A program made the position numbers and the translations under genes. A stretch of 64,000 nt of DNA from Nannocystis pusilla (GTDB lineage Bacteria; Myxococcota_A; Polyangia; Nannocystales; Nannocystaceae): NCBI RefSeq assembly GCF_026626665.1, contig NZ_JAPNKE010000002.1, positions 1,421,204 through 1,485,203 on the forward strand. Reading direction: 5' to 3'. The notes beneath the pieces were generated by a model. That model did no database searches and had not been told where the DNA came from. It saw nothing but the letters and a program-made list of their open reading frames with translations. Within the stretch, counting starts at the first letter, position 1. Each line of letters begins with the position of its first letter. Below are positions 3,011-55,615 of this stretch, one piece after another.

Positions 3011-4030
3011 TCACTCCGGCTGGGAGCCGTCGCAGGCGCCCGGGTCGGACTGCCACAGGTCGCAGTAGCGATCGGCCAGGAGGCCGCCGCGGCCGCTGTC
3101 GAAGTCGCCGCAGGTCGGGATGTCGTCGAGGGCGTCGAAGCAGAGCGGGTACTCGTAGGGGACGCCGGCGTCGTCGAGCATCTTGAGGCGCCGCTGATCG
3201 CCGACACAGACCGCGCCGTCCGGGCCCCACTCGGCCTCGATACCCCAGTTCTGCAGGGTCAGGGTCGCGGGGCTCTGGATCGCCGGGCTGAGGCCGTCGA
3301 ACACGTCGATCGGCGTGCCGGTGAAGGTGTGCGGGGTGCCGTCGCCGCAGTAGTCGGCGCGGGCCAGCCGCGTGCACGCCTGGTGGTGGTCGGCGAGGGA
3401 GACGCCGCCGACGGTGGCCCAGGGGCGATAACCCCACTCGACGCACTTGGCGAGCACGGCGTCGCGGCAGGCGAAGGTGACGACGCTGGCGTCGTCGTTG
3501 CGGTCGCCGGTGGCGCCGTCCCACCAGTTGGCGATGGCGATCGCCTGGGTCGGCTGACCGAGGTGGTCGTAGCAGAGGCTGGACCAGGTGCCGGCCTCCA
3601 CGTCCTGCACCGCGATGTCATAGAACCACACGTCGCCGTCGGGGTCGGCCGGGTCGAGGAAGATGTCGTCGAAGCGCAGGACGTAGGTGTCGGTGCCGGC
3701 CTCGAGGTTGAGCAGCGAGCCGATGAGGTCGTCGCCGCTCACCTGAACCGGAGTGCCGTCGACGACCATGGTGGCCGAGAAGCTGCTGCCGTTGAGGTTG
3801 ATGCCGTTGAGGTTGATCCCGTTCATGGTCCAACCGTTCATGCGCATCCCGTTGAGGTTGATCCCGTTCATGCGCATGCCGTTGAACTGCGTCCCGTTCA
3901 TCTGAGCGGAGTTCAACTCGAGTCCGTTACCGACGTCGCTTCGCAGCGTAACCGCCGTTTGAACGTCGTTATCGACGACATCACAGGCCACAACCGAACC
4001 GACCAGTGCCAGCCAAATCCCTCGAGTCAT
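3011..4030 (-). CDS. ADYC-domain lipoprotein with N-terminal NG pentapeptide-like repeats
   Basis: ATG at 4030 gives MTRGIWLALVGSVVAC (signal peptide plus lipobox-like VVAC). Repeats NGINL/NGMRM/NGWTM follow. The C-terminal Cys-rich domain contains the RADYCGDG motif. Confidence 0.6.
   Translation of the reverse strand: MTRGIWLALVGSVVACDVVDNDVQTAVTLRSDVGNGLELNSAQMNGTQFNGMRMNGINLNGMRMNGWTMNGINLNGINLNGSSFSATMVVDGTPVQVSGDDLIGSLLNLEAGTDTYVLRFDDIFLDPADPDGDVWFYDIAVQDVEAGTWSSLCYDHLGQPTQAIAIANWWDGATGDRNDDASVVTFACRDAVLAKCVEWGYRPWATVGGVSLADHHQACTRLARADYCGDGTPHTFTGTPIDVFDGLSPAIQSPATLTLQNWGIEAEWGPDGAVCVGDQRRLKMLDDAGVPYEYPLCFDALDDIPTCGDFDSGRGGLLADRYCDLWQSDPGACDGSQPE
3780..3900. repeat. Coding 15-nt tandem repeats (ccgttgaggttgatg-like) encoding the NG pentapeptide-like repeats of the ADYC lipoprotein
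   Basis: Direct nucleotide periodicity visible at 3781-3900. Confidence 0.7.
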
Positions 4031-4359: not shown

Positions 4360-5154
4360 TCAGGCGCCGGAGGCGATCGGCGTGGCATCGGAGGGGATCG
4401 GCGCGGCGCGACCGGGCACGATGCCGCGCTCCGCGAAGTCGGCGATGATCTTGTGGGCGCGCTCCATGACCTCGGCCAGTTCGGCGTCGGACAGGCCCTT
4501 CGTCTCGATCGGGGCGCCGACGTAGATCGTGATCTTGGTCGGCGTGAGCAGGTACGAGCCCTTCTGCATCAGATCGTACATGCCGTGCGTGGCCAGCGGA
4601 ATGACGGGGAGGCCGGCGATGCGGGCCATCCAGAACACGCCGCGCTTGAACTCGGCGACCTTGCCGTCGAGCGTGCGGTGGGCCTCCGGGAAGGCGAGGA
4701 TCGAGATGCCCTTCTTGGCCCGGTCGCGCGCGGCCTCGGCGATGGCGCGGTAGCGGTTCTTGCCGTCGGGCACCGGGATGCCGTCGGCCAGCTTCATGAT
4801 CCAGCCGTACATCGGGATCTTGAACTGCCAGGCGTTCATCAGGCCGCAGAAGGCGTGCGGGATCGAGGCGCAGGCGGCGTGGGCGTCGAGCAGGTTGACG
4901 TGATTCATCATGAACACGCCGCGCCGCTCGGGGTCGAAGTCGGGGTCGTAGATGATCTCGACCTTCGACAGGGTGATCTTGAGGACCGCGCCCATGCCGG
5001 GCCCGCCGATGTAGTTGTGGGTCTTGCGCGACGGGACCACCGTCGACACCGCGGCCCACGTGACGGCGACGGCACCCATCCACGCGAACGAGGCGGTCCA
5101 CACCGCGGCCGAGTAGACGACCTGAGCTGCCTTCTTGAGGATCTTGAACACCAT
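4360..5154 (-). CDS. Lysophospholipid acyltransferase (PlsC/AGPAT family, 1-acyl-sn-glycerol-3-phosphate acyltransferase-like)
   Basis: HxxxxD motif (NHVNLLD) and FPEAHRT (FPEGTR-like) motif. Last gene of a co-directional operon, 4 nt after the DAGK stop. Confidence 0.8.
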   Translation of the reverse strand: MVFKILKKAAQVVYSAAVWTASFAWMGAVAVTWAAVSTVVPSRKTHNYIGGPGMGAVLKITLSKVEIIYDPDFDPERRGVFMMNHVNLLDAHAACASIPHAFCGLMNAWQFKIPMYGWIMKLADGIPVPDGKNRYRAIAEAARDRAKKGISILAFPEAHRTLDGKVAEFKRGVFWMARIAGLPVIPLATHGMYDLMQKGSYLLTPTKITIYVGAPIETKGLSDAELAEVMERAHKIIADFAERGIVPGRAAPIPSDATPIASGA

Positions 5155-5158
5155 TACA

Positions 5159-6067
5159 TCACGTCCGGACGTCGAGGGCGCCGGGGACGACCTCCAGCCG
5201 GCGCGGGTTTATCTTGATCATCTCGCCGTCGACCATGACGTCGATGTCCTCGGCGAGGCGGAGGTCGAGGCCGGGGGCCTGGTAGCAGCGCACGGCCGGG
5301 TGCTGCACGTGCGTGCCGCTGAAGATCTTGGGGAAGGTGCGCAGCAGGCCGACGCGGCCGAGGCGACCGACCCGGATGATGTCGAGCAGGCCGTCGCGCG
5401 TGTTGGCGTCGGGCGCCATCATCATCTTGCCGCCGGTGAAGCGGCTGTTGTTGAACGACAGGAAGGTCAGCGGCTCGCGGTCCTCGGGGTGACCGTCGAT
5501 CTGCATCGGGAAGGTGTAGGGCCGCAGCGCGGCCACCCGCAGCACGGTGCTGAGCGTGTAGCCGAACTCGCCCAGCGCCGAGAAGTTGCGGTTGCGGGTG
5601 GCGCCGACGTCGGCGACAAAGCCGATGCTGAAGATGTTGATGAAGTGCAGCGCGCCGCGGGTGTGCGTGCAACGAACGAGGTCGCACGGCCGGGTCTTGC
5701 CGGCGATGATCGCCTCGATCGCGTACTCGGCCCCCTGATCGGTGAAGTCGCGCAGGAAGGAGTTACCTGTCCCGAGAGGCAGCATGCCGAGCGACGGGCG
5801 CTCGCCCTCCGGCAGGGCGCCGGAGAAGATGCCGTTGATCAGCTCGTAGCTGGTGCCGTCGCCGCCGACGGCGACAAAGTGGCGCCGGCCGGCCGCGACG
5901 GCCTCGCGCGCGAGCTCGGTGGCCTGACCGGCGGCCCGCGTCTCGACGACGTCGACCTTGATGCCCGACTGCCGCAGCCGGTCGACGACCGCGGGCGCCC
6001 GCTTGCCGCACACGCCGCCGCCGGCGGCTGGGTTGACGACTGCGAGGAGGGTGGCCGGATCGTGCAT
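5159..6067 (-). CDS. Lipid kinase with diacylglycerol-kinase catalytic domain (YegS/BmrU/DAGK_cat family)
   Basis: VGGDGT motif with the GTGN.. context typical of DAGK_cat; 302 aa. Confidence 0.75.
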   Translation of the reverse strand: MHDPATLLAVVNPAAGGGVCGKRAPAVVDRLRQSGIKVDVVETRAAGQATELAREAVAAGRRHFVAVGGDGTSYELINGIFSGALPEGERPSLGMLPLGTGNSFLRDFTDQGAEYAIEAIIAGKTRPCDLVRCTHTRGALHFINIFSIGFVADVGATRNRNFSALGEFGYTLSTVLRVAALRPYTFPMQIDGHPEDREPLTFLSFNNSRFTGGKMMMAPDANTRDGLLDIIRVGRLGRVGLLRTFPKIFSGTHVQHPAVRCYQAPGLDLRLAEDIDVMVDGEMIKINPRRLEVVPGALDVRT

Positions 6068-6143
6068 GCGGGCATGCTATCAGGCCCCGGAGGGCCGTGG
6101 AGGGGCGGGTGGCCGCGGGACGGGGCGGCGCGGCCGCGGCGGT

Positions 6144-7859
6144 TCACAGCTCGCGCAGGGCGACGTCGCGGCCGAGCGGCTTGAGCTCGCGGGCGAGCGG
6201 GTCGCGCTTGATCTTCTGCGAGGCGGTGCGCGGGAACTCGCGGTCCCACAGCACGTAGGCGGAGATCCGCTTGTAGTCGGCGAGCCGGAGGTTGCGCTTG
6301 CGGAAGGCGTCGACGAGGTCGGCGCGGCCGGCCTCGTCGAGGCCCGACTTGGGCCGCACGACGACGATGAGCTGCTCGTCGGTCATCTTGCCGGTCGGCC
6401 AGATGAAGTTGGCCGCGAACACGCAGAACTCCTCGCAGTCGTCGATGTCGCCGAAGGCGGCCTCGATGTCCTCGGGGTAGACGTTCTTGCCGCCCTCGGT
6501 GACGATCATGTTCTTGGTGCGGCCCAGCAGCTTGAGGTGCCCGGCGGCGTCGATGCTGCCGAGGTCGCCGGTGCGCAGCCAGCCGTCGACGATCGCCTCG
6601 CGCGTCAGCTCGGGCGCGTCGAGGTAGCCGAGCATGACCGTGGGCCCGCGCACCCACACCTCGCCGACGCCGGCGTCGTTGACGTCGCGCAGCTCGATCT
6701 CGGTGCCCTCGACCGCCTTGCCGACGCTGTCGCCGCGGAACGGCTTGAGGTCGTTGACGGTGAGGACGGTGCCGGCCTCGGTGAGGCCGTAGCCGATGGC
6801 GACCGGGAGGCCGAGGCGGTTGAAGTACTCGGCGCTGGTGCGGTCGACGAAGGCGCCGCCGCAGAACATGAGCCGCAGCTTGCCGCCGAAGTACTCGTGG
6901 ATCGGGGCGAGCAGGGTCTTGCTGAGCCGGTGGTCGGGCGCCTGGCGGGTGGCGTACTCGTTGAGGTCCATCAAACCATCGAGCACGAGCCGCTGCCACT
7001 TCGGCAGCTCGGCGATCTTCTCTTTGATCTTCTTCTCGAGGGTCTTGAGGATCGTCGGCACCAGCGCCATGTGGGTGACGCCGTAGCGCTTCATGGTGCT
7101 GGCCAGGTAGGCCGGCCGCAGGGTGCGCTGGTGGACGACCGCGCCGCCCATCATCAGCGCGAGCAGGAAGCCGCACATGAAGTCGATGGCGTGGTTGGTG
7201 GGGAGGATCGAGAAGTAGCGGTCGCCCTCGCTCAGCGGGTAGAGGTTGCCGAGGGTCTCGGCCTGGGCGAGGTAGTTGCCGTGGGTGAGCTGGCAGCCCT
7301 TGGCGGTCCCGCCGGTGCCCGAGGAGTAGACGATGCAGGCGACGTCCTCGCGGGCGCGGGCGTGGTAGGTGAAACCTGCTCCTTGGGGCAGGTCCTCCCA
7401 GCGCACGGCGCGGCCGATGCCGGCGCCCTCGGGGGCCTCGGTGACGATGACGAGGGTGCGCTCGAAGATCGAGGGATCTTCGCGCTGCAGCTTGTCCCAC
7501 GCCGGCCACTCGGCCAGGACGACGCGCGGGCGGCAGTGGGCCAGCAGGGCGTGCTGCTCGGGCGCGGTCAGCTTGTAGTCGATCGGGACCAGCACGGCGC
7601 CGGCCCACAGCGCCCCGGTGGCGCCGATCAGCCACTTCGACTGGTTCTGCATGACGATCGCGCAGCGATCGCCGGGGCCGAAGCCGTGGGCCTGAATCGC
7701 GCCGGCGAACCGCTCGGCCGCGGCCCGCAGCTCGGCGAAGGTGTGGCGCGAGTTCTCGCGGTGGCGATCGGCCTCGATCAGCGCGGTCCGGCTCTTGTAC
7801 GTGATGGTGGCGTCACGCAGCGCCTCGCCGAGGCAGGACAGCTTTCCCAGGTCGAGCAT
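6144..7859 (-). CDS. Long-chain fatty acid-CoA ligase / AMP-dependent synthetase
   Basis: YSSGTGGTAKG AMP-binding motif and TGDLG...GRTKNMI C-terminal motifs. Its ATG directly abuts the upstream ACP stop codon. Confidence 0.8.
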   Translation of the reverse strand: MLDLGKLSCLGEALRDATITYKSRTALIEADRHRENSRHTFAELRAAAERFAGAIQAHGFGPGDRCAIVMQNQSKWLIGATGALWAGAVLVPIDYKLTAPEQHALLAHCRPRVVLAEWPAWDKLQREDPSIFERTLVIVTEAPEGAGIGRAVRWEDLPQGAGFTYHARAREDVACIVYSSGTGGTAKGCQLTHGNYLAQAETLGNLYPLSEGDRYFSILPTNHAIDFMCGFLLALMMGGAVVHQRTLRPAYLASTMKRYGVTHMALVPTILKTLEKKIKEKIAELPKWQRLVLDGLMDLNEYATRQAPDHRLSKTLLAPIHEYFGGKLRLMFCGGAFVDRTSAEYFNRLGLPVAIGYGLTEAGTVLTVNDLKPFRGDSVGKAVEGTEIELRDVNDAGVGEVWVRGPTVMLGYLDAPELTREAIVDGWLRTGDLGSIDAAGHLKLLGRTKNMIVTEGGKNVYPEDIEAAFGDIDDCEEFCVFAANFIWPTGKMTDEQLIVVVRPKSGLDEAGRADLVDAFRKRNLRLADYKRISAYVLWDREFPRTASQKIKRDPLARELKPLGRDVALREL

Positions 7860-8093
7860 CTAGCGCCTCGCGTCGATCTTCTGCGCCAGCGCGGCGAAGG
7901 TCTTGATCCCCTGGAGCTCGTAGTCGGGCAGCTCGACGTCGAACTCGTCCTCGACGTCCGAGATGAGCTCGACGGCCTGGAAGCTGTCGATGCCGAGGCG
8001 CTCGAACAGGTCGTCCTCGGCGCGGAGCTGGGCCGGGTCGGCGCCGAAGCGCTTGGCGGCGAGACGGATGAGGGTGTCGAGGGAGGTGCTCAT
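7860..8093 (-). CDS. Acyl carrier protein (phosphopantetheine attachment site)
   Basis: 77 aa, LGIDSFQAVELI with the DSF serine context. Its ATG overlaps the ECH stop (ATGA). Confidence 0.8.
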   Translation of the reverse strand: MSTSLDTLIRLAAKRFGADPAQLRAEDDLFERLGIDSFQAVELISDVEDEFDVELPDYELQGIKTFAALAQKIDARR

Positions 8094-8861
8094 GGCAGGT
8101 ACGGTCTCAGGTCGGTGGACTCGACGAAGCGCTTGAGGGCGGCCAGCAGCGCCGGGCCCTCGGCGAGGCGGACGAACAGCTCGCGCTCGGCGAGCAGCTC
8201 GTCCTTCGGGAGCTTCTTGATGAAGGCCTTGGCGGCCTCGCGCGCGGTCTTGTCGAACTTGGCGGTCTGGGCCGCGAGCGCGCGCGGCGGTGATGCCCTC
8301 GCCGCTGGCGAGGACCTGGCTGACGAGGCCGGCCGCCAGCGCCTTCTTGGCGTTGATGCTGCGGCCGCTCAGCAGGAGGTCGCGGATGAGGCCGTTGCCG
8401 ACGTCGCGGCGCAGCCGCGGGATGCCGCCGAAGCCGGGGATGATGCCGAGGCGCAGCTCGGGGAAGCAGAAGCGCGCGGTCTTCTCGGCGATCAGGACGT
8501 CGCAGGTGAGCGCGAGCTCGAAGCCGCCGCCGAAGCAGACGCCGTGGACGACGCCGACGGTGGTCAGCGGCAGCATGTCGAGGTCGTCCATGACGCCGTG
8601 GATGGCGTCGATGAACTGGCGGATCTGCGGCCCGTGCTGATCCTTCGGCGCGTCGGAGAGGCCGCGGTAGAGCTCGCGCAGGTCGGCGCCGGCGCAGAAG
8701 CCCTGGCGCAGGCCGCTGCGCAGGATCAGGGTGTGCGCGTCGCGATCGACCTGGTCGAGGAAGCGGCGCAGATCGGCGAGCATGGCCGTGCCGATCTCGT
8801 TGCACGGCGGCCTGGCGAGGGTCAGCTCGTACACGCCTTCGCTGTAGGTCCAGTCGATCAT
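8090..8861 (-). CDS. Enoyl-CoA hydratase/isomerase (crotonase fold), apparent 1-nt frameshift near 8285-8295
   Basis: MIDWTYSEGVYELTL...GFCAGADLRE...VHGVCFGGGFELALTCD is the crotonase signature. After a GCGCGCG run the C-terminus continues in another frame (...AAQTAKFDKTAREAAKAFIKKLPKDELL...) and ends in a TGA that overlaps the ACP ATG. Length 772 nt. Confidence 0.65.
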
Positions 8862-10492
8862 GACGCGTAGGCCTTGTCGATCTCGGCGCGGTAGCGCTGC
8901 TCGACGGCGCGGCGGCGCAGCTTCTGGTTGGCGGTGAGGAGGCCGTTCTCGATCGTGAACGGCTCGGCCACGCGGATGAAGGCGCGGACCTTCTTGTAGT
9001 GCGGGACGCTGGCGTTGACGACCTCGAGCGCGGCGTCGATGGCGTCCTTGGGCACGTCGCCGGGGACGATGATGCCGAGGAACGGCCGCGCGTGGCCGAC
9101 CAGCATGCACTGCTCGGCCTTGGGGCAGGCGGCGAGGAACTTCTCCTCGATCGGCTCGGGGGCGATGTTGTGGCCCGACTCGGGGACGAGGATGTTCTTG
9201 ACGCGGCCGATGATGCGGACGTTGCCGGTGGCGTCGAGGTCGCCCTGGTCGCCGGTGTGGAACCAGCCGTCCCTTATCGCCTCGGCGGTGGCCTGCTCGC
9301 GGCCCCAGTAGCCGGCGAAGATGCCCGGGCCGCGCACCAGCAGCTCACCCTCGTCGGAGATCTTGATCTCGCAGCCCTGGATGGCGTGACCGACGTAGCC
9401 GGGGCGCACGCCGCCGGGGATGTCCATGGTGACGATCGCGGTGGTCTCGGTCAGGCCGTAGACCTGGTAGACCTGCACGCCGACCAGCTCGAACCACCAC
9501 TGCGTCTCCTCGGCCAGCGCCGCCGAGCCGCAGATCAGGAACTCGAGGCTGGGGCCGATCTGCTGCTTGATCTTGCTGAAGACCAGCTTCTTGGCGGCGG
9601 CCAGAGTGAGCCTGTCCAAGAGGCCAGCCTTGCCCTCGCGCTCGGCGCGGAAGGCCGCCTGGCCGCGGTCGTACAGGGCGAGGGCGAGGCCGCCGCGCTC
9701 GGCGATCTTCTTGCCGACGCCGTTCTTGATCCGCTCGAGCACCGCCGGCACGTTGAGGTAGTAGTGCGGATCGGCGGCGCCCATCTCGGCGACGAGGTTC
9801 TGCAGGTCGGTCGACAGCAGCAGCGGGTTGCCGCGGTACAGCTGCGTCCACAGCATGACGCGCGAGCCGGCGAAGCAGAACGGCAGGAAGTGGAACACCT
9901 TGTCGGCCCGCTTGCCGCCGGTGATGCGGTCGACGCTGCCGCGGGTCTGCGGCAGCATGTAGTCGACGTTGGCGCGGGTGAGGACGACGCCCTTGGGCTC
10001 GCCGCTGGTGCCGGAGGTGTAGATGATGGTGACCGGGTCGGTCGGCGCGACCGGTCGCGGCGGCTCGTGCACGGGCTCGCCGGCGAGGACGTCGAGCATG
10101 TCCTCGATCGGGCAGTGCTCGGGCCAGGCGTCGCGCAGGCCGGCGGCGAGCTCGGAGCCGTCGGCGATCACGAGCACCGGCGTGCAGTCCTTGACCATGA
10201 CCGCCAGCTCTTTGGGATCCTGGCGGCTGTAGAGCGGGACGACGATCGCGCCCTCGAACAGGATGGCGAGGTCGGCGGCGACCCAGCGGGCCGAGTTGGG
10301 CGCGAGCAGGGCGACGCGGTCGCCCGGCTTGACGCCGTGGCTGCGCAGAAAGCCGCGCGCGTGGGCCACGAGGTGCAGCAGTTGCGCGGCCGAGGTCGGC
10401 CGGCGGTCCTTGCCGTGCAGCTCGATGAGGAGCTGATCCTCGCGGGTCTTCTGGACCGCGGCGTGGATGACTTCGAGGAAGTTGTCGCTCAT
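8858..10492 (-). CDS. AMP-dependent synthetase/ligase (acyl-activating enzyme)
   Basis: IIYTSGTSGEPKG AMP-binding motif and GWFHTGDQG...GRVKNIL. ATG at 10492 (MSDNFLEVI). ATGA overlaps with both neighbours. Confidence 0.75.
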   Translation of the reverse strand: MSDNFLEVIHAAVQKTREDQLLIELHGKDRRPTSAAQLLHLVAHARGFLRSHGVKPGDRVALLAPNSARWVAADLAILFEGAIVVPLYSRQDPKELAVMVKDCTPVLVIADGSELAAGLRDAWPEHCPIEDMLDVLAGEPVHEPPRPVAPTDPVTIIYTSGTSGEPKGVVLTRANVDYMLPQTRGSVDRITGGKRADKVFHFLPFCFAGSRVMLWTQLYRGNPLLLSTDLQNLVAEMGAADPHYYLNVPAVLERIKNGVGKKIAERGGLALALYDRGQAAFRAEREGKAGLLDRLTLAAAKKLVFSKIKQQIGPSLEFLICGSAALAEETQWWFELVGVQVYQVYGLTETTAIVTMDIPGGVRPGYVGHAIQGCEIKISDEGELLVRGPGIFAGYWGREQATAEAIRDGWFHTGDQGDLDATGNVRIIGRVKNILVPESGHNIAPEPIEEKFLAACPKAEQCMLVGHARPFLGIIVPGDVPKDAIDAALEVVNASVPHYKKVRAFIRVAEPFTIENGLLTANQKLRRRAVEQRYRAEIDKAYAS

Positions 10493-11970
10493 GCGTGGCG
10501 CTCCAGCAGGCGCTGCACGCCCGGCGGCAGCGGCGGCAGGTGGGCTTCCCAGGTGCGCGGGAGGTCGCGCCGCGGGAACTCGGGGTAGACGCGGACGACC
10601 TCGTCCATGAAGTCGATGCCCATCTGACCCATGAGCTTCAGCTGGGCCGGGACGGCGCGGGCGATGTCGGCGCTGATGCCCTCGGCGTCGCGCCACAGGC
10701 GGCGCAGGGTGTGCAGCAGCTTGTCGCCGAGGCCCTCTTCGTCGACCTCGAAGAACATGTCCGGGTGGCCGCGGTCGTTCATGAGGTTGCGGATCCGCTC
10801 GTCCATGGTGACGCCGGCGGAGGGCACGAGGCCGGGCATCGAGGTGACGATCGCGTGGAAGCGCGAGCTCACCATCATGCTGCAGTTACGCAGCACGCTG
10901 ACGAGGTCGTACATGTCGTGCTCGTCGCTGACGAACAGCGCGCCGCCGCGGTCGAGCCGCGGCTGCAGGTCCTCGCAAGCGTGGCGGTCGAGCTGCTCCA
11001 TGCCGACGAGGATGGTGAAGAACTCGCGCTCCGCCGCGAAGGCGTTGACGCCGTCGGCCAGGGCCTGGATGTACGCGTTGTACTTCTTGTCGGCCGCTTC
11101 GCTGTGGTGGTGGAAGTAGAAGGCGCTGTAGTGCTCGTGCTTGTACTGCCCGCCGAGCTTGTAGGCGGCATACTTGAGCAGGTCGGGCTTGACCGGCCAC
11201 CAGAACGGGTTGATCGGGCAGACGACGAGGACCTTCTGGCGGCCGTCCCAGCCGGCGTCGCGCAGCAGCTGGGCACCCCTGGACAGCGGCGCGGGATCGA
11301 AGGTCCAGGCGGTGTCGGCCCCGCTGGTGGTGCGGATGCCGAGCTCGCCGAGGACCTTGCGCGAGGGCTCGTTGCGGCAGATGACCAGCGACTTCTTGCA
11401 GGCGTCGCGCACGAAGTCGCGGAGCGCCGGGGTCATGTTGCCGGCCTCGGCGCCGTAGCCGACGCTGACCTTGTTCTCGGCGTTGGCGAGGCCGAGCGCG
11501 CCGGCCATGAAGCAGGTCAGCGCGCTCGAGAACTTCGACTTGAACATCGAGCCCTCGCAGGCGATGACGCCGTGGTGCTTCGGGCACTCGGTGGCGATGA
11601 ACTTGGGGAACACCGCCGGCAGCTCGATCTGGTGGACGGCGCGGAAGTAGCCGCGCGTCAACTTGGGATCGACGGTCATGATCGTCAGCTCGAGCTGGTC
11701 GTCGCCGACGACGTGGCGCAGCTGGCGGATCATCTCCTCGACGCGGACGTCGGCGCCGGTGTTGCGCGTGCCGACGTAGCCGGCCAGCAGCAGCTTGAGC
11801 GGCTTGCCCGGCTTCCACGTCTCGGGCGCCATGCCGAGGACGTTGCGGACGGCGACGCCCTCGATGGCGGCGGCGACGGTGGCCTGGAGGGCGCGGTCGG
11901 GGTCGACGACGTCCTTGACCTTGTCCCAGATCTTGCTGGTGGTCTTCTTGACGGGTGCGCTCTTGGACAT
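10489..11970 (-). CDS. Polysaccharide pyruvyl transferase family (PF04230-like) protein
   Basis: LLAGYVGTRNTGADV N-terminal glycine/N.GD motif and SRFHAIVTSMPG motif. Family call from recalled motifs, moderate certainty. Confidence 0.45.
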   Translation of the reverse strand: MSKSAPVKKTTSKIWDKVKDVVDPDRALQATVAAAIEGVAVRNVLGMAPETWKPGKPLKLLLAGYVGTRNTGADVRVEEMIRQLRHVVGDDQLELTIMTVDPKLTRGYFRAVHQIELPAVFPKFIATECPKHHGVIACEGSMFKSKFSSALTCFMAGALGLANAENKVSVGYGAEAGNMTPALRDFVRDACKKSLVICRNEPSRKVLGELGIRTTSGADTAWTFDPAPLSRGAQLLRDAGWDGRQKVLVVCPINPFWWPVKPDLLKYAAYKLGGQYKHEHYSAFYFHHHSEAADKKYNAYIQALADGVNAFAAEREFFTILVGMEQLDRHACEDLQPRLDRGGALFVSDEHDMYDLVSVLRNCSMMVSSRFHAIVTSMPGLVPSAGVTMDERIRNLMNDRGHPDMFFEVDEEGLGDKLLHTLRRLWRDAEGISADIARAVPAQLKLMGQMGIDFMDEVVRVYPEFPRRDLPRTWEAHLPPLPPGVQRLLERHA

Positions 11971-11980
11971 GTTCGAAGGG

Positions 11981-13124
<1,144 letters not shown>

Positions 13125-13128
13125 GGTG

Positions 13129-14814
13129 TCAGACGACCTCGGCGTGGGGCGCGGGCGCGGCCTCGGGCGAGCGCAAGCGGAAGGGGTGGCGCGGGGCGTA
13201 GCTCTCGGGGGTCTTGTTCTCGAACAGCGGGAAGCACCACTTGCGAAGCCCGGGGATGTGGACGTCGATCCAGTAGTGGCGCCAGTCGATGCTGCGCGGG
13301 TCGCAGTCCCACTCGGGCTCGACGACGGGGTGCCGCAGCAGGTTGCGGGTGACGAACGCGAAGTAGTTGTCGTGGATGAACGGCAGGTAGAGCTCGCACA
13401 TGCGCTCGATCTTGTCGATCGCCTCGAGCGCGTCCTCGGTGTGCTCGACGAGGTCGCCGAGCCGGCGGCGGATGAACTCCGGCCAGCCCTTCGGTGGGTC
13501 GCGCAGCCACTCGTCGACCGACTCGGTCATCTTGCGCACGTTCTCGATCCGCATCGGGTGGTCGGGCGTGACGGCGATCGCGTCCCAGCGCGACTTGACG
13601 ACGCGGTCGAGGGTGGTGTCGCCGCGGGTGCGCAGGTGCTTGCGGTGGGCCAGCGCGACCAGCTCGACGGCGCGGTCGATGGTGAGGAGGTTGAGGTCCG
13701 AGCTGCCGCACTGGTAGACCGGCGCGTGCGCGCCCCGCATCAGCGCGGCGCCGGCGACGGTCATGCCGCGGCAGACGTAGTCGACCGGGATGATGTCGAA
13801 CGGGTTGCCCCGCTTGCACGGCAGGTGGCGGAACCAGCTGCCGAGCGCGTAGCTCAGCGGGCCGCAGGTGTTGAAGCCCTGGTTCCACCCGGGGAACGGG
13901 TAGCTCATGGCGCTCTCGACGATCGCGGGGCGGAACATGCTCCACCGGCCGGGATCGAGGCGGCGGGCGATCCACGCCTCGGCCATGTTCTTGGTGTACG
14001 TGTAGATGTTGGTGAAGCCCCAGCGGCCGGCGCGGCGCTGGCCCTCGGCGACCATCGCGTCCTTCAAGAGGTTGCGCTTGATCCGGCGGGCGGTGTTGCG
14101 CACCAGCATCGCGTTGGTCTCGTCGCCGCCCTTGTCGCGGATCTGCTTGACCGCGTCGTCGTGGGCGCGCCTGTCCATCTCCGGCGACTCGTGCTCGGCG
14201 AGGATGGCGTCGATGCTGGCCTGGACCTCGGCGCACTCGACCTCGACGTCGAACGGATCGCCGGCGGGCGAGAGGTCGGGGCGGATGTCCTCGGGGATGA
14301 GGCCGTTCTTCTTGCCGGTGACGTAGCAGGTCGAGATGTGCAGCAGCACCGCCTTGTCGCAGGCGGCGACGAAGTTGGCGGCGTTGCGGGCGCCCTCGAC
14401 GTTGGTCGTCATGGCGTCGCGCAGGTCGGGGTCGAAGTCGACGAGGCCGGCGCAGTTGATCACGAGGTCGATGTCGCGGCGCAGGCGGGCCAGCACCGCC
14501 GGGTCCTCGACGCCCATGTCGGGCAGCGAGACGTCGCCGGAGACGACCTCGATCCGCTCGCTGATGAAGCGGCTCATCTCGGCGCCGTACTTCTCGTGCA
14601 GCGGGCGGAAGCACGGCGAGGTCTGGACCTGGCGCTCGAACCGGTCGGCGGCGGGGCGCAGCGCCTTCTTGCGGGTGAGCACGTAGATCTTGCCGACGTC
14701 CGGGACGTGCTGCAGGACCATCGCCAGCCAGACCTTGCCGAGGAAGCCGGTGACCCCGGTGAGCAGGACGTGGCGGCCGGCGTAGCTGTGCTTGATCGAG
14801 ATCGGCGTGTTCAC
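13129..14814 (-). CDS. Fatty acyl-CoA reductase (FAR / male-sterility-type, alcohol-forming)
   Basis: HVLLTGVTGFLGKV Rossmann motif with a YTYTK active-site context; 561 aa, two-domain FAR-like architecture. Confidence 0.7.
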   Translation of the reverse strand: MNTPISIKHSYAGRHVLLTGVTGFLGKVWLAMVLQHVPDVGKIYVLTRKKALRPAADRFERQVQTSPCFRPLHEKYGAEMSRFISERIEVVSGDVSLPDMGVEDPAVLARLRRDIDLVINCAGLVDFDPDLRDAMTTNVEGARNAANFVAACDKAVLLHISTCYVTGKKNGLIPEDIRPDLSPAGDPFDVEVECAEVQASIDAILAEHESPEMDRRAHDDAVKQIRDKGGDETNAMLVRNTARRIKRNLLKDAMVAEGQRRAGRWGFTNIYTYTKNMAEAWIARRLDPGRWSMFRPAIVESAMSYPFPGWNQGFNTCGPLSYALGSWFRHLPCKRGNPFDIIPVDYVCRGMTVAGAALMRGAHAPVYQCGSSDLNLLTIDRAVELVALAHRKHLRTRGDTTLDRVVKSRWDAIAVTPDHPMRIENVRKMTESVDEWLRDPPKGWPEFIRRRLGDLVEHTEDALEAIDKIERMCELYLPFIHDNYFAFVTRNLLRHPVVEPEWDCDPRSIDWRHYWIDVHIPGLRKWCFPLFENKTPESYAPRHPFRLRSPEAAPAPHAEVV

Positions 14815-14856
14815 GGGTGTCCTCCGGTTCCTGTCCCCAAGGTCAGTCGCGTAGTC

Positions 14857-15534
14857 TCAGTCGCGGTAGTCGATGATCGGCCAGTCGGCGTCCTTGGCGC
14901 TGCGGCGCAGGACGAAGTCGGGGTTGACGGCGCACGGCTTGCCGACGCGGGAGAGCAGCAGCATGTCCGGGCCGTGGGCGCCGTAGGCGGCGCAGCGCGC
15001 GAGCTGGAGGTCGTGCGCGGCGGCGTAGTCGTCGAGCCAGCGGCCGCCGACGTTCGAGCCGATGACCGGGTCGAGCAGCTTGCCGGTGGCCTCGCCGTCC
15101 TCGAACTCGATCTTGTTGTAGACGAGCTCGTCGTAGTGCTTGAGGTGACGCGCGAGCGGCTTCATGATCGGCTCGATGCTGTCCGACAGCAGCACGACCC
15201 GCCGGCCCTCGGCCTGCAGGCGCTTGAGCAGCTCGAGGCCCTGATCGAGGATCGTGTCCTTCAGGACATCCTCGGCGTACTCCTCGCAGAGGACCTCGAC
15301 GCGGTCCTGGCTCATGCCGCGGATGGCGAGGTGGGCGAGGCGGTGGGCCAGCGCGCGGTCGGTCTGACCGAGCAGGCGGTGGACCGGGGCGGCGAGGCCG
15401 ACCAGGCCGAGGCGGACGGCCCGCTCACCGAACTTCTTGGCGTTGCCGGCCAGATAGGCCGCCGCGCTGAGCACGCCGCGGGCGAGCAGGATGCCTTCGA
15501 CGCGGACGAATGCTGCCGTGTTGGTTTGTGTCAT
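14857..15534 (-). CDS. HAD-IB-like hydrolase fold protein with degenerate motif I
   Basis: ATG at 15534 (MTQTNTAAFVRVEGILL). HAD-like motifs II-IV are present (LLSDS..., K..., GD..D). Motif I reads FVRVEGIL instead of FDxDGTL. Confidence 0.5.
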   Translation of the reverse strand: MTQTNTAAFVRVEGILLARGVLSAAAYLAGNAKKFGERAVRLGLVGLAAPVHRLLGQTDRALAHRLAHLAIRGMSQDRVEVLCEEYAEDVLKDTILDQGLELLKRLQAEGRRVVLLSDSIEPIMKPLARHLKHYDELVYNKIEFEDGEATGKLLDPVIGSNVGGRWLDDYAAAHDLQLARCAAYGAHGPDMLLLSRVGKPCAVNPDFVLRRSAKDADWPIIDYRD

Positions 15535-15726
15535 CGACCAGGCTCGCGGCCTAGTTAGCGCACCCGAGGCCGGCGTTACAAGCATTCGCGTGGCGTCTCG
15601 AATGCCTGCGAAGGCCGCTGCGCACGCCGTTTTACGCGTGCAGGGGGCTTCGCAGGACGGGGCGCAGAGGGGGCCTGGCGCCGCTCCGCGGGGCTTTGGT
15701 GCGATGCGTAGCGAGCGGACGAGATG

Positions 15727-15742
15727 TTTACTCGCGCGAGTA
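15727..15742. promoter_or_regulatory. Perfect 16-bp palindrome TTACTCGCGCGAGTAA in a divergent promoter region (candidate operator)
   Basis: Located mid-way in the 316-bp gap between the lipid operon start (15534, minus) and the mqnB start (15851, plus). Read directly. Confidence 0.3.
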
Positions 15743-15850
15743 AGTAGTTGGCGCGGACGATTGGTCGTGCGTTTAAGAAATTGCTCCCGCGTGAGACCGG
15801 TCGGGGCGTCACCGGTGGGACGCGCGGCGAGGTGCGCTATCGTTGCGGAC

Positions 15851-16480
15851 GTGACCGCGCCGCTGCTCGTCTGCGCCGCCGATGTCGAGGGCCGCGGGCT
15901 GCCCTCGGCGCTGCGCCTCGGCGTCGGCAAGGTGGCGTCGGCGGTGAGCATGACGCAGGCGCTGATCGAGCGCCGGCCGGCGTGGGTGCTGCTGTTCGGG
16001 GTCTGCGGCGCCTATCCCGAAGGACATGGCCCGGGAGGCAGGCTCGACGTCGGCGACGTGTGCCTGGTCGGCGAGGACTGGCTGGGCGACGAGGGGGTGG
16101 CGGTCGACGACGGCTTCCTGCCGCTGGCGCAGCTGGGGCTCGGGTCGGTCGGGCCGTTCGAAGCCGACGCGGGGCGCACCGCCGCGGCGGCGCGGGTGCT
16201 CGCGGTGCCGGTGGTGCGCGGGGCGACGGTCAGCACCTGCAGCGGGACGGACGCGCGCTCGCGTGCGCTGGCCAGCGGCACGGGGGCCACGGTGGAGACG
16301 ATGGAGGGGGCAGCGGTGGCGTGGGCCTGTCGGGCGCTCGGGGTGCCGTGGGTGCAGCTGCGCTGCGTGAGCAATCGAACCGGCCGACGCGCCGCGGGCG
16401 GGTGGGACCTGCCGCGCGCGGTGGCCGGGGTGCAGGCGGCGCTGCTGCGACTGCAGGCCGCGGACTGGGGGAACGAATGA
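15851..16480 (+). CDS. mqnB: Futalosine hydrolase (MTA/SAH nucleosidase-like, MqnB)
   Basis: GTG at 15851 (VTAPLLVCAADVEG...). PNP/MTAN fold motifs (SGTGATVETMEGAAVAWAC). Its stop overlaps the mqnD ATG (ATGA). Confidence 0.6.
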   Translation: MTAPLLVCAADVEGRGLPSALRLGVGKVASAVSMTQALIERRPAWVLLFGVCGAYPEGHGPGGRLDVGDVCLVGEDWLGDEGVAVDDGFLPLAQLGLGSVGPFEADAGRTAAAARVLAVPVVRGATVSTCSGTDARSRALASGTGATVETMEGAAVAWACRALGVPWVQLRCVSNRTGRRAAGGWDLPRAVAGVQAALLRLQAADWGNE

Positions 16481-17295
16481 GCGAGCCGCTGCCGATCGGG
16501 TTCTCGCCGTGTCCGAACGACACGTGGATGTTCGACGCGCTGGTGCGCGTGCCGGAGTTCGTGCCGGGGCTGCGGCCGCTGCCGTGGCTGGCCGACATCG
16601 AGGCGCTCAACGAGCGCGCGCTGGCCGGCGAGGCGCCGCTGCCGGTGACGAAGCTGAGCGCGCACGGGCTTTACTGGGTCGAGCGCGATTACCTGGTCTT
16701 GCGGACAGGTGCGGCGCTGGGCCGCGGCTGCGGGCCCTTGGTGGTCGCGCGCGAGGCGACGGAGCTCGCGGCGCTGGCGGGGCGGAAGATCGCCATCCCC
16801 GGCGCGTACACGACGGCGCACCTGCTGCTCCGCTGCTTCGCGCCGGCCTCGGTGACGGTGGTGCCGATGCGCTTCGATCGCATCATGCCGGCGGTGGCCG
16901 CGGGCGAGGTCGACGCGGGGCTGGTGATCCACGAGGCGCGGTTCGTGTTCCGCGACCACGGGCTCGAGCAGGTGGCGGACCTCGGCGAGGTGTGGGAGGC
17001 GGCGACGGGGCTGCCGCTGCCGCTCGGGGTGATCGCGGCCCACCGCTCGCTGCCCGCGGGGCAGGTGCGGGCGGTGGAGGAGGGGATCGCGCGGTCGATC
17101 GCGGCGGCGGAGGTCGACCCGGCGGCGGCGTGGCCGTTCGTGAAGGCGCACTCGCAGGAGCTGAGCGACGAGGTGTGCCGGCAGCACATCGCGCTGTACG
17201 TCAACGAGTTCTCGCGCGAGATGGGCGCGGAGGGGGCGGCGGCGCTGGCCGAGCTGCGGGCGCGCGGGCAGGCGGCGGGGCTGTTGCCGCGCTGA
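16477..17295 (+). CDS. mqnD: 1,4-dihydroxy-6-naphthoate synthase (MqnD)
   Basis: MSEPLPIGFSPCPNDTWMFDAL is the typical MqnD N-terminus; periplasmic-binding-protein-like fold. Confidence 0.65.
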   Translation: MSEPLPIGFSPCPNDTWMFDALVRVPEFVPGLRPLPWLADIEALNERALAGEAPLPVTKLSAHGLYWVERDYLVLRTGAALGRGCGPLVVAREATELAALAGRKIAIPGAYTTAHLLLRCFAPASVTVVPMRFDRIMPAVAAGEVDAGLVIHEARFVFRDHGLEQVADLGEVWEAATGLPLPLGVIAAHRSLPAGQVRAVEEGIARSIAAAEVDPAAAWPFVKAHSQELSDEVCRQHIALYVNEFSREMGAEGAAALAELRARGQAAGLLPR

Positions 17296-17358
17296 GCGGG
17301 CGAGGGCGACGCTCCCCGCGTGCCCCGAGCGGACGCGCGGCCCGGCGGTCGATGGCCG

Positions 17359-17435
17359 CGAGGACATGTCCGTGAGGATATGCTCGGAGGACATGCACTC
17401 GAGAGCCTGTTCATGAGGACATGCTCTCGAGTGCC
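17359..17435. repeat. Cluster of four GAGGACATGYNC units (GGACATGTCC-core family)
   Basis: Intergenic, between mqnD and the convergent ABC ATPase gene. Confidence 0.6.
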
Positions 17436-17459
17436 TGTAGCGATGGCGACGGGCGGACG

Positions 17460-18242
17460 TCAGCCCACGGGCAGGGCCTCGAAGAACAGGCGGCCGTCTC
17501 GCTCGTGGGCGACCACGCCGAAGGCCGCGCCGAGGTGCTGCGGGCTGAAGACGTCGGGGCAGGCGCCGACGCGGGCGCGGCCGGCGGCGAGCAGGACCGC
17601 GTCGTCGGCGTGGCGGCGGGCGAGGTCGAGGTCGTGCTCGGCGACGAGGACCGCCACGCCCTCGCGCGCGAGGGCCCGCAGGTGGCGGTAGAGGCCGAGG
17701 GCGTGGCCGATGTCGAGGCCGGCGGCCGGCTCGTCGAGGATGACGACGGCGGCCTCGGCCGCGAGCATGCGCGCGAGCATGACGCGCTGGCGCTCGCCGC
17801 CGCTGAGCCGGCCGATCGGGCGCTCGGCGAAGGCGGCGAGGCCGAGGCGGGCGAGGGCGGCTTCGGCGGCGTCGGCGTCGGCGGCGCGCGGCGGACCGAA
17901 GCGCGGGAGGTTGGGCAGCCGGCCGAGGAGGACGACCTCCCGCACGTGGAGGTCGGGCTCGACGGGGCAGTGCTGCGGCAAATAGGCCAGCCGGCGGGCG
18001 CGCGCGGCCGGCGAGAGGGCGGCGAGGCGGTCGCCGAGCAGCTCGACGTGGCCGGCCTGCGGACGGTCGAGCCCGGCGAGGGTGCGCAGGAGGGTCGACT
18101 TGCCGGCGCCGTTGGGGCCGGCGACGACGCAGATCCGGCCGCGCCGGAGGTCGAGGTCGAGGGCCTCGTAGAGGACCCGCTCGGCGAGCCGGCAGGTCAG
18201 GCCGCGAGCGGCGAGGGCGGGCGCCTCGGTCATGTCCGGCAT
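17460..18242 (-). CDS. ABC transporter ATP-binding protein (FecE/HmuV/BtuD-like), no adjacent permease
   Basis: Walker A GPNGAGKST, signature LSGGERQR, Walker B ILDEP. Confidence 0.75.
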   Translation of the reverse strand: MPDMTEAPALAARGLTCRLAERVLYEALDLDLRRGRICVVAGPNGAGKSTLLRTLAGLDRPQAGHVELLGDRLAALSPAARARRLAYLPQHCPVEPDLHVREVVLLGRLPNLPRFGPPRAADADAAEAALARLGLAAFAERPIGRLSGGERQRVMLARMLAAEAAVVILDEPAAGLDIGHALGLYRHLRALAREGVAVLVAEHDLDLARRHADDAVLLAAGRARVGACPDVFSPQHLGAAFGVVAHERDGRLFFEALPVG

Positions 18243-20434: not shown

Positions 20435-21207
20435 ATGACGATGATGCGGAGCGCGACGCGAGTGTTGGCGGCTGTCACTGTGATGTCGAGCCTGGCGGGC
20501 TGTGAGGCGCTGCTCGAGCCGAAGACGAAGCTCTCGCTGGCCATCTCGCACCACGGTACGCGCGACGAGAAGGGGGTCCTGCCGAACCTCGGCGAGGCCG
20601 ACGCCGCCCGCGTGTTCGTCAACGACAAGGGCTGGCAGATCAACCTGGCCGAGGGCGTGATCGTGATGACCGCGGCGCAGGTCGAGTCGTGCGCCGGCGA
20701 GAGCTTCGACTTCGAGCTGCCGTACGGCCCGTTCCCCGAGTACCAGCGGCGCAGGATCAGGACCTCGTCGACTTCGCTTCGGTCGAGCTGCCCGAAGGGA
20801 CATATTGCAAGCTGCGCGTCGAGTACGGCCGCTACCAGTCGTCGCTGGCCGAGCAGGCGTTCGACACGCCGTACCAGCTCCACGGCCACGCGTCGGTCGA
20901 GGGGCTGACGGTCTACCTCGCTGGCACGGCGGTCGACCCGTCCGGCGCCCACGAGGGCGCCAACTGGAAGTTCCAGACCAATCAGACCACCATCGTCGAG
21001 CTCGACCTCAGCGCGGCCGATGACGGACGCCCGCTCACGATCACCGGCAAGGAGCCGGGCGGCAAGGCGCTGACGGTCGCCAAGACCTACGACGCGTTCT
21101 TCCGCGGCATCGACTTCTCGAACTACGACCCCGAGGCGATCAACGACCGCCTGCTCGAGGTCCTCAGCGCCGAGACGTACGTGCGGGTCGGCGCCCAGAT
21201 CTTCTGA
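20435..21207 (+). CDS. Lipoprotein of unknown function, apparent 1-nt frameshift near 20750-20760
   Basis: MTMMRSATRVLAAVTVMSSLAGC is a signal peptide plus lipobox. The N-terminus is in the same frame as ygiQ; the C-terminus is in the frame of ORF 20689-21207. Confidence 0.45.
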
Positions 21208-54408: not shown

Positions 54409-55608
54409 TCACTCGCTCGGCGCGGTGACCCGCTGCGGCTGCACGCGAGAGCTCCGCAGCATGTCCTGGAACGGGTTGTCGTCGCGCCAGACGTCGCCCG
54501 CGAGCATGCTGATGAGGCCGCGCCGCAGCTGGGGGTCGGGCGTGCGGGCGAAGAACAGGTGCGACACGAGCCGCGTGTGGTAAAAGCGGCGGATCAGCTG
54601 CTCGAAGCTGTCGTAGGCGACCTGCATGGTGGCGTGGACCGGGGCCATGAGATCGGCCGCGGCCTCGCGGCCCTCGGCGAGCGCCGGGACGAGGAGGTCG
54701 ACGGTGCGCTCGGCGCCCAGCATCGCCAGCGAGACGCCCGACGAGAACACGGGGTCGAGGAATGCGCAGGCGTCGCCGACGCAGGCCCAGCGCGGGCCGG
54801 AGGGGCGGGTGTTCTTGTAGCTCCAGTTGCGGATCGTCCGCGTGGCGCTGCGCGTGGCCCCGGCGGTGAGCCGACGGCACAGCGGCGAGGCAGCCAGGGC
54901 GGCCTCGAAGGCGTCGTCGTCGAGCTTGCCCCGCCACTTCACGAGGCCGACGCTGAGCCGACCGCCGTGCATGGGGATGAGCCAGTGCCAGCCGTCCTCG
55001 ACGATCAGCACCTTGATGTTGCCCTGCTCGCCGAGCTCGGCGCGGACCTCGGGCGAGAGGTCGTCGAAGTGGCAGAAGACGGCGGCGCGCCCGAGCTCGT
55101 GCAGCGGGGCGATCGTGCGGGCGCCGCGGCCGAGCATGGCGTCCTGGCCGGTGCAGTCGAGGAGGAAGCGGGCCTTGTGCTCCTCGCGCTCGGTGACGAC
55201 GCGGACGTGATCGGCGGCGAACTCGATGTCGCGCACGCGCTCGGCGAAGCGGATGTCGGCGCCGTGGCTCCTGGCGACGTCGCACAGCATGGTGTCGAAG
55301 CTGGCGCGGTCGACCTGCCAGGCGTGCGAGGGCGTGCCCTCGAGGCCGTCGGCGAAGCTGAAGAAGGCGAACTCGCCGGTGCGCTCGTCGATGAACTCGG
55401 CGCCCTGCTTGAACTGCCAGCGCGTGCGATCCATGGCGACGCCGAGGCGGGCGAAGATCGGCAGGTCGATCGGCAGCAGCGACTCGCCGATGTGGAAGCG
55501 CGGGAACACGTCCTTGTCGAGCGTGACGGCCCGGACGCCCGCCTGCGCGAGCAAGTTGGCGGCGGTCGATCCGGCCGGGCCGGCCCCGACGATCAGGACG
55601 TCGTGCAT
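54409..55608 (-). CDS. Flavin-dependent halogenase-like FAD oxidoreductase (GxGxxG, WxWxIP, FxDPxFSxG motifs)
   Basis: VLIVGAGPAGSTAA; GWHWLIP; FLDPVFSSG. This motif combination is characteristic of tryptophan-halogenase-type enzymes, but substrate and halide use are unverifiable here. Confidence 0.55.
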   Translation of the reverse strand: MHDVLIVGAGPAGSTAANLLAQAGVRAVTLDKDVFPRFHIGESLLPIDLPIFARLGVAMDRTRWQFKQGAEFIDERTGEFAFFSFADGLEGTPSHAWQVDRASFDTMLCDVARSHGADIRFAERVRDIEFAADHVRVVTEREEHKARFLLDCTGQDAMLGRGARTIAPLHELGRAAVFCHFDDLSPEVRAELGEQGNIKVLIVEDGWHWLIPMHGGRLSVGLVKWRGKLDDDAFEAALAASPLCRRLTAGATRSATRTIRNWSYKNTRPSGPRWACVGDACAFLDPVFSSGVSLAMLGAERTVDLLVPALAEGREAAADLMAPVHATMQVAYDSFEQLIRRFYHTRLVSHLFFARTPDPQLRRGLISMLAGDVWRDDNPFQDMLRSSRVQPQRVTAPSE

Positions 55609-55615
55609 GACCGGG

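Follow-up and report, generated by a model that had tools for sequence, protein, structure and literature searches.

Which lipid does a bacterium make with an operon in which the formation of a fatty alcohol is joined to a protein of the polysaccharide pyruvyl transferase family? This question is raised by ten genes at positions 4360 to 15534, minus strand, of a 64,000-nucleotide stretch of the Nannocystis pusilla genome (assembly GCF_026626665.1, contig NZ_JAPNKE010000002.1, positions 1,421,204 to 1,485,203), which is called here the window and is numbered from its first letter. Knowledge of alkyl ether lipid synthesis in aerobic bacteria is incomplete, and the chemistry of ElbD, the multidomain enzyme of the elb operon of Myxococcus xanthus, is itself unsolved. 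We tentatively propose that the operon builds a reduced ether-type lipid whose three-carbon backbone would come from phosphoenolpyruvate (PEP), placed onto a fatty alcohol, rather than from glycerol phosphate; from the sequences at hand, we consider this plausible yet short of probable. Independently of the exact product, the operon appears to be widespread, undescribed in the searched literature, related to elb in content and organised around a fatty-alcohol-linked enzyme of the pyruvyl transferase family, with an appreciable chance that it represents a new ether-lipid route. Full-text searching of the literature returned no paper on such a gene combination, nor any linking a pyruvyl transferase to an alcohol-forming fatty acyl reductase (FAR) or to ether lipids.

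The genes were delimited by codon-position GC and their domains were assigned by profile searches against Pfam and NCBIfam. A preliminary description, made from the letters alone, had reported ten co-directional minus-strand genes with gaps of 0 to 76 nt and several ATGA overlaps; this arrangement was borne out, and every one of its domain calls was upheld by both profile collections. What it had not mentioned is that two of the ten reading frames, those of TR and ECH, are broken. In the order of transcription, HAD-FAR-TR-PvT-AL2-ECH-ACP-AL1-DGK-LPL, the genes are:

14857 to 15534, minus strand: HAD, the first gene, a HAD-IB-like protein of 225 aa (PF12710, 69.9 bits; TIGR01490, 69.8 bits, under its cut-off)
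13129 to 14814, minus strand: FAR, a FAR-like alcohol-forming fatty acyl reductase of 561 aa (PF07993, 166.9 bits)
11981 to 13124, minus strand: TR, a stand-alone thioester reductase of about 381 aa after repair of its frame (PF07993, 148.5 bits for the repaired protein)
10489 to 11970, minus strand: PvT, a pyruvyl transferase-like protein of the PS_pyruv_trans family, 493 aa, with a GT-B fold (PF04230, 44.5 bits against a cut-off of 25.3)
8858 to 10492, minus strand: AL2, a long-chain acyl-activating enzyme of 544 aa, FadD11-like (PF00501, 214 bits; PF23562, AMP-binding_C_3)
8090 to 8861, minus strand: ECH, a crotonase-type enoyl-thioester hydratase of about 257 aa after repair (PF00378, ECH_1, 131.9 bits)
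7860 to 8093, minus strand: ACP, a dedicated acyl carrier protein of 77 aa (PF00550, PP-binding, 52 bits)
6144 to 7859, minus strand: AL1, an acyl-activating enzyme of 571 aa whose gene abuts that of ACP (PF00501, 239 bits)
5159 to 6067, minus strand: DGK, a lipid kinase of the YegS/Rv2252/BmrU family, 302 aa (PF00781, DAGK_cat, and PF19279, YegS_C)
4360 to 5154, minus strand: LPL, a PlsC-type lysophospholipid acyltransferase of 264 aa (PF01553, 56.2 bits against 23)

The GC of third codon positions lies between 0.87 and 0.99 for each of these genes, in a window of about 70% G+C. From PvT to AL1 the genes are linked throughout by stop/start overlaps or abutment, with ATGA overlaps at the PvT/AL2, AL2/ECH and ECH/ACP junctions (the last in the repaired ECH frame only) and a TAGATG abutment between ACP and AL1. 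The remaining gaps measure 4 nt (FAR/TR and DGK/LPL), 10 nt (TR/PvT), 42 nt (HAD/FAR) and 76 nt (AL1/DGK). The operon is bounded on both sides, by divergent mqn-like genes upstream and by a gene for a secreted ADYC-domain protein downstream. Taken together, the sequence supports a dedicated, tightly coupled lipid operon.

Is this arrangement peculiar to N. pusilla? It is not, as the gene order is kept across several phyla. Relatives of PvT were sought in a collection with one genome per species, where they are encoded at no fewer than 495 loci, and all ten proteins were run by tblastn on the 80 best of these. Most of the 80 show the colinear order HAD-FAR-TR-PvT-AL2-ECH-ACP-AL1-DGK-(LPL). This order was found in Nannocystaceae, Sandaracinaceae, Polyangiales and Bradymonadia on the Myxococcota side, in Bdellovibrionota, and in many Terriglobia and Blastocatellia of the Acidobacteriota, and a 5 kb contig binned as Binatus carries at least TR-PvT-AL2-ECH. 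When only loci with enough flanking DNA are counted, HAD, FAR and TR are each present at 59 of 63, ECH at 44 of 50, AL2 at 42 of 50, and ACP, AL1 and DGK each at 41 of 50, while LPL is the least conserved member (24 of 50). The operon is conserved as a single-copy colinear unit across phyla, although some genomes have its genes in two modules, HAD-FAR-TR(-PvT) and (PvT-)AL2-ECH-ACP-AL1-DGK-LPL. Some of the related loci contain a TetR-family gene within the cluster. In many loci of Terriglobia (for example at 16893–17776 of locus L047), the kinase gene is followed not by an acyltransferase gene but by two small conserved genes, which to judge by their sequences may encode a protein resembling thioredoxin/DsbA and a membrane protein resembling VKOR, with an esterase-like gene next.

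Which of the ten proteins stands at the centre of the pathway? Sequence conservation points to PvT, the best conserved of the set, which would be the signature enzyme of the operon rather than an add-on. It keeps the conserved motif set of the PF04230 family, at least 95% conserved across orthologues, and its fused orthologues score 47–58 bits on PF04230. Against the CsaB equivalog model TIGR03609 it reaches 72.3 bits where the cut-off is 213.1, and it is therefore not CsaB itself; sequence searches of the PDB, whether made with the protein or with its profile, yielded no meaningful match. In short, PvT shares with the polysaccharide pyruvyl transferases CsaB, WcaK and Pvg1p the PF04230 signature, the motif set and, at a generic level, a GT-B fold, yet differs from them in falling below the CsaB cut-off, in lacking a sugar or polysaccharide context and in being fused to FAR or to a ligase in other organisms; the acceptor proposed here is a lipid alcohol. 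To our knowledge, all characterised PF04230 members (CsaB, Pvg1p, WcaK) use PEP. Since PvT passes the PF04230 threshold and keeps the motifs of this family, PEP is presumably its donor as well.

Natural fusions provide a second line of evidence. A profile run on 1.84 billion representative proteins returned 268 clusters at E ≤ 1e-30, with a few unusually long members among them. One such member, P0271, is a FAR-PvT fusion of 1014 aa from Pseudobacteriovorax sp. (NRA66965.1; NAD_binding_4, Sterile and PS_pyruv_trans domains), which was found on five contigs and heads a minimal cluster, [FAR-PvT]-ECH-ACP-AL1-like, whose sole ligase is a homologue of AL1 (40% identical) and which has no acyltransferase. 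Another, P0174, is a fusion of 967 aa in which PS_pyruv_trans is followed by an AL2-type ligase, seen on one metagenome contig. Its cluster, on a Logan contig of a low-GC organism (SRR33375175, 553–9478; locus L085), has the order [PvT-AL2]-TR-polytopic membrane protein (no Pfam match)-SDR-[AMP-binding + NAD_binding_4 fusion]. The core is thereby retained in small natural versions of the cluster. HAD and FAR, in turn, are fused in about 35 acidobacterial loci, as verified by Pfam on two of them (L040 and L074). The fusions form a chain HAD~FAR~PvT~AL2, and the PvT-like enzyme, placed immediately behind a fatty acyl reductase and immediately ahead of an acyl-activating enzyme, is accordingly read as the hub of the pathway. 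Moreover, the fusion of PvT to a ligase agrees with a product that bears a new carboxylate, as would be the case for an enolpyruvyl or pyruvyl group. The preliminary description had listed a pyruvyl-transferase-family protein, a HAD-like protein and an enoyl-CoA hydratase as three unusual additions to an elb-like gene set. The HAD-like protein is not an addition, since elb has a HAD-like protein of its own (ElbB), and PvT is far from peripheral; relative to elb, the real extras are PvT, ECH, the kinase and a second ligase.

The other proteins were compared with the catalytic residues and score cut-offs of their families. In HAD, motif I reads R-V-E where HAD enzymes carry D-x-D, R-x-E is found in all aligned orthologues, and the acidobacterial HAD-FAR fused forms also lack the C-terminal HAD motif. 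The degenerate catalytic motif noticed in the preliminary description is thus genuine and family-wide, and the protein is a conserved non-phosphatase domain rather than a local degenerate copy. Lacking the phosphatase nucleophile, the domain most likely assists FAR as a partner without catalytic activity. FAR starts with GTG, preceded by GGAGG, and matches the fatty acyl-CoA reductase 7eoz in the PDB (1.2e-32). The family architecture of NAD_binding_4 followed by Sterile (FAR_C) is present, with Sterile reaching 20 bits against a cut-off of 35.4 in the window protein and passing in orthologues only (46.6 and 36.2 bits). TR, which also matches PF01370 (58 bits), passes PF07993 and stays below TIGR01746 (133 bits, cut-off 213); in the PDB it comes closest to 4u7w, the reductase domain of MxaA (3e-18), and an alignment of 62 orthologues shows at least 95% conservation of the Rossmann motif, of S141/T142 and of Y170-x3-K174. 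The same level of conservation holds for the catalytic glutamate pair E115 and E135 of ECH (47 orthologues) and for the phosphopantetheine-attachment residue Ser37 of ACP. AL2 scores 200 bits, under the cut-off, on the FadD11 model NF038343, and the PDB relatives of AL1 are generic ANL ligases. DGK exceeds the cut-off of TIGR00147 (150.3 bits against 118.65), and LPL has a hydrophobic N-terminal segment and an H-x4-D motif, NHVNLLD, read from the sequence.

How could these activities be joined in one pathway? Beside the observed gene content, residue conservation, synteny and fusions, we infer a PEP donor, a fatty-alcohol acceptor, an order of steps and a product as follows. A ligase, of the operon or of the housekeeping set, would activate a fatty acid, and FAR would reduce it to the fatty alcohol. 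PvT would then place an enolpyruvyl group from PEP on the single hydroxyl, giving an alkyl enolpyruvyl ether (2-alkoxyacrylate); an enol ether is to be expected because a fatty alcohol offers only one hydroxyl, and the new carboxylate of such an ether would account for the fusion or translational coupling of a ligase with PvT. Activation of this carboxylate to a thioester would fall to AL2, with CoA as acceptor, or to AL1, which would load the ACP of the operon; the product would be a 2-substituted acrylyl thioester that a crotonase could hydrate. By Pfam, none of the ten operon proteins is an acyl dehydrogenase or desaturase that might serve as a source of enoyl groups, and the enolpyruvyl ether would supply the crotonase substrate. 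ECH would hydrate C2=C3 to give a 2-O-alkyl-glyceroyl thioester, with a chemistry as in the hydration of methacrylyl-CoA, a reaction carried out by ECHS1. TR would subsequently reduce the thioester to 2-O-alkylglycerol; the MxaA reductase domain, which it resembles most, is a four-electron reductase. Finally, the DAGK-type kinase would phosphorylate the 2-O-alkylglycerol and the PlsC-type enzyme would acylate it, yielding an ether analogue of phosphatidic acid.

Parts of this scheme have parallels elsewhere. In the synthesis of muramic acid (MurA/MurB) and of F420, via PEP-derived dehydro-F420-0, PEP gives rise to an enol ether on a hydroxyl group, and a reduction follows. The analogy is chemical only, as the folds are unrelated and as thioester formation, followed by hydration and reduction, is proposed here. 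AL1, ACP and TR together resemble a split adenylation-carrier-reductase set of the kind known from carboxylic acid reductases and from the terminal reductases of nonribosomal peptide synthetases (NRPS; A-PCP-R, MxaA R domain), but here they are separate proteins within a lipid operon, with no NRPS or polyketide synthase (PKS) module. The peroxisomal-type route (FAR1, GNPAT and AGPS, the last being the alkyl-dihydroxyacetone phosphate synthase; MXAN_1676-1674 in M. xanthus) likewise starts with a FAR-made fatty alcohol and employs an acyltransferase of the LPLAT family. It differs in that the operon contains no AGPS and in that a kinase would be superfluous if the backbone were already dihydroxyacetone phosphate (DHAP). 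The preliminary description had found no alkyl-DHAP synthase, and this is upheld: by Pfam, none of the ten operon proteins has the FAD_binding_4 and FAD-oxidase_C domains of AGPS, and none is evident in the other open reading frames of the window, which were mostly inspected by eye from their translations, seven being run on Pfam. An AGPS-type route was accordingly rejected. No domain of the anaerobic PlsA-type reductase/activase (PlsA/PlsR, Ger) was detected by Pfam in the ten proteins.

Three further candidates were tried and set aside. A sphingolipid or ceramide-phosphoglycerate-type pathway was rejected for want of a serine palmitoyltransferase, and the known Cpg enzymes differ. A pyruvate ketal of a long-chain 1,3-diol would have no source of enoyl substrate and would leave the crotonase roleless after ketal formation. 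Housekeeping phospholipid synthesis, against which the preliminary description had already asked that its reading be checked, does not agree with the Pfam and NCBIfam content, and genes of the plsX, plsY or cdsA type are not in the operon.

The closest known system is the elb operon of M. xanthus (elbA-E, MIBiG BGC0000871); both operons are found in aerobic bacteria from which ether lipids are known. ElbD has been described as a combination of FAR1-like, acyl-CoA synthetase (ACS), ACP and AGPAT-like domains, ElbB as HAD-like and ElbA and ElbE as members of the NAD-dependent epimerase family, with the function of ElbC and the ether-forming chemistry unknown (PMC9131029). At the level of these published domain descriptions, both systems share FAR-like, ACS-like, ACP and AGPAT-like functions, a HAD-like protein and epimerase/reductase-family proteins, and the order HAD...FAR...ACS...ACP...AT is colinear with ElbB-ElbD. 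The overlap with ElbD and its partners that the preliminary description had pointed out, distributed over separate genes, is therefore borne out by domain content and extends to gene order. The differences are that ElbD is one multidomain polypeptide whose four functions are here on separate genes, that the PvT-like protein, crotonase, DAGK-type kinase and second ligase are added, and that no counterpart of ElbC was identified in the operon. One may accordingly ask whether the genes form a split elb-type ether-lipid pathway, in which AL1, ACP, FAR or TR and the acyltransferase would do the work of ElbD, HAD that of ElbB and TR that of ElbE, the ether bond would arise as in M. xanthus on glycerol-phosphate or DHAP, and PvT, ECH and the kinase would modify or recycle the product. 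We regard this as a genuine, if doubtful, possibility. Beside the matching inventory and order (PMC9131029), it is favoured by the elb-like clusters of sponge symbionts, which also contain diacylglycerol kinases and acyltransferases, and by distribution: Nannocystis, Polyangium and Sorangium are reported to have no conserved elb cluster, and Sandaracinus and Enhygromyxa to lack it altogether (PMC12224551), so that the occurrence of the present operon in just these lineages would fit a functional replacement. Yet it leaves the best-conserved PvT and the crotonase without a role, and neither the FAR-PvT and PvT-AL2 fusions nor the acyltransferase-less cluster [FAR-PvT]-ECH-ACP-AL1 is explained by it.

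A glycerol-free or head-group-modified anionic lipid appears improbable. Characterised PF04230 members ketalise two hydroxyls with pyruvate, and PvT, which is over the threshold of this family, might make a fatty alcohol or long-chain diol with a pyruvate ketal or enolpyruvyl head group, or a pyruvylated head group, the kinase and the acyltransferase acting on another intermediate. Half of the loci do without the acyltransferase and L085 has an SDR in place of ECH, which agrees with such a product. A ketal, however, offers no double bond, whereas the catalytic residues of the crotonase are conserved, and a PvT-fused ligase followed by a thioester reductase implies that the carboxylate is processed onward rather than kept as a head group. 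Sub-threshold matches of TR and FAR to NRPS and carboxylic-acid-reductase models (NCBIfam) could also suggest a cluster of secondary metabolism or catabolism that has nothing to do with membrane lipids, such as one for the NRPS-like reductive release of a small acid, but this we hold to be very improbable. Features of condensation, ketosynthase or adenylation specificity are lacking, the two ligases belong with those for long-chain fatty acids, the operon includes a lipid kinase and a PlsC acyltransferase, and the set is kept as a single-copy colinear unit across phyla. In the same sense, the Pfam and NCBIfam searches did not assign the proteins to siderophore or polyketide tailoring, the outcome that the preliminary description had named as contrary to its own proposal.

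The proposed PEP-derived backbone on a fatty alcohol has to face several observations that weigh against it. Characterised PS_pyruv_trans enzymes form cyclic ketals on sugars and not enol ethers on alcohols, and we know of none that acts on lipids. Reported monoethers of Acidobacteria and myxobacteria have a 1-O-alkyl chain, while the model predicts 2-O-alkyl. A structure search with PvT retrieved only the generic GT-B fold, with the pyruvyltransferase Pvg1p ranked 39th, so that another donor may be used. AL2 is missing from 8 of 24 non-acidobacterial loci, some of them myxobacterial, and there is no crotonase near the PvT-AL2 fusion of L085, where an ACP, a kinase and an acyltransferase are missing as well; the assignment of steps is consequently not unique. 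The HAD-like domain seems to have no step in the proposed pathway. Furthermore, six more distant PvT-like representatives (about 215–375 bits) sit in unrelated gene contexts, and the association with the operon for this reason holds only for the close PvT subfamily. The model as a whole is drawn from sequence evidence.

A much broader claim would be that de novo construction of a PEP-based backbone on a fatty alcohol, without AGPS, an ElbD-type enzyme or PlsA/Ger, is the general aerobic route to ether bonds in Terriglobia, Blastocatellia and elb-less myxobacteria, and thereby a candidate source of the ether bonds, those at sn-2 at least, in acidobacterial monoethers and in lipids of the branched glycerol dialkyl glycerol tetraether type. 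We consider this unlikely. Recent papers call ether-bond formation in Acidobacteria (monoethers and branched tetraethers) unclear outside subdivision 4. The branched tetraethers of these bacteria are widely used climate proxies, and the operon is a compact and strongly conserved candidate in exactly the relevant phyla, with natural minimal versions of four or five genes and fusion proteins that are amenable to expression and assay. Should the product not be an ether lipid, there would still be a lipid-linked role for a PvT-family enzyme and an uncharacterised lipid class widespread in soil bacteria.

Is the operon still functional in N. pusilla? The TR frame shifts near 12866 and the ECH frame near 8286, each gene being split over two frames. 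Both genes are intact in Nannocystis sp. RBIL2, which is 97.7% identical to the window over 12.5 kb and served as frame reference. Relative to it, the window lacks 2 nt in TR (GAG[AA]GCTG) and one GC unit of a (GC)n run in ECH. A decaying relic, in which both frameshifts are real and TR and ECH are pseudogenes, could be argued from two independent 2-nt deletions within an 11-kb operon whose genes are intact in so close a relative, one of them in a slippage-prone (GC)n run; still, we think it rather unlikely. A frame-transition scan of the whole 64 kb gave two more candidate frameshifts in unrelated genes, one at 20750–20818 (plus strand) in a lipoprotein-like gene downstream of a YgiQ-type radical SAM gene and one at about 24200 (minus strand) in an amidohydrolase-like gene (24619 to 23592). 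With about four breaks per 64 kb, roughly one per 16 kb, the share of the operon (2 of 4) is not significant (binomial P ~0.14). Codon-position GC holds coding levels on either side of each break, and the remaining indels relative to RBIL2 are all intergenic or compensated; among the differences are a compensated pair of 1-nt indels near the 3′ end of PvT (10520–10525) and a block of small insertions that sets apart the 3′ end of the HAD-like gene (14852–14869). Because some four such breaks are spread across the window, assembly error is likelier than decay as their cause, and the assembly looks indel-prone.

The neighbourhood of the operon offers some further observations. Upstream lies the following region:

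15535 to 15949, no strand: divergent intergenic region of 415 nt between the operon and mqnB/mqnD-like genes, read from the sequence

It contains a perfect 16-nt palindrome, TTACTCGCGCGAGTAA, at 15728–15743, about 195 nt upstream of the HAD gene, whose arms TTACTC and GAGTAA are kept in Nannocystis sp. RBIL2 with one central change; the palindrome is a candidate operator. No match to the sigma-70 consensus was found in this region, and a scan for a promoter and terminator of the operon was uninformative. The divergent genes encode a PNP_UDP_1 protein that is futalosine-hydrolase-like (mqnB-like; 15950–16480, plus strand) and a VitK2_biosynth protein of the MqnA/MqnD family (16477–17295, plus strand), both of the futalosine route to menaquinone. 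On the other side, just downstream of the operon, the gene of the secreted ADYC-domain protein (3011–4030, minus strand; PF20032, 204 bits) is probably a separate transcription unit. Its start is taken as the ATG at 4030, the first ATG in a frame open up to a GTG at 4105, and the protein has an N-terminal run of short MNG(I/M)NLNG-type repeats.

Farther away, local G+C rises to 76% at 16001–18000, with many overlapping open frames, and an ABC-transporter ATPase gene (17460–18242, minus strand) lies within this stretch. The YgiQ-type radical SAM gene mentioned above lies at 18341 to about 20500 (plus strand; Radical_SAM_N, Radical_SAM and DUF3362). Finally, a flavoprotein of the Trp_halogenase/FAD_binding_3 type is encoded at 54409–55641 (minus strand), and a beta-ketoacyl synthase gene (57730–58935, minus strand) abuts a gene that by eye resembles one for serine hydroxymethyltransferase (58936–60138, minus strand); these genes, between 54409 and 60138, could be another small lipid or secondary-metabolite locus.

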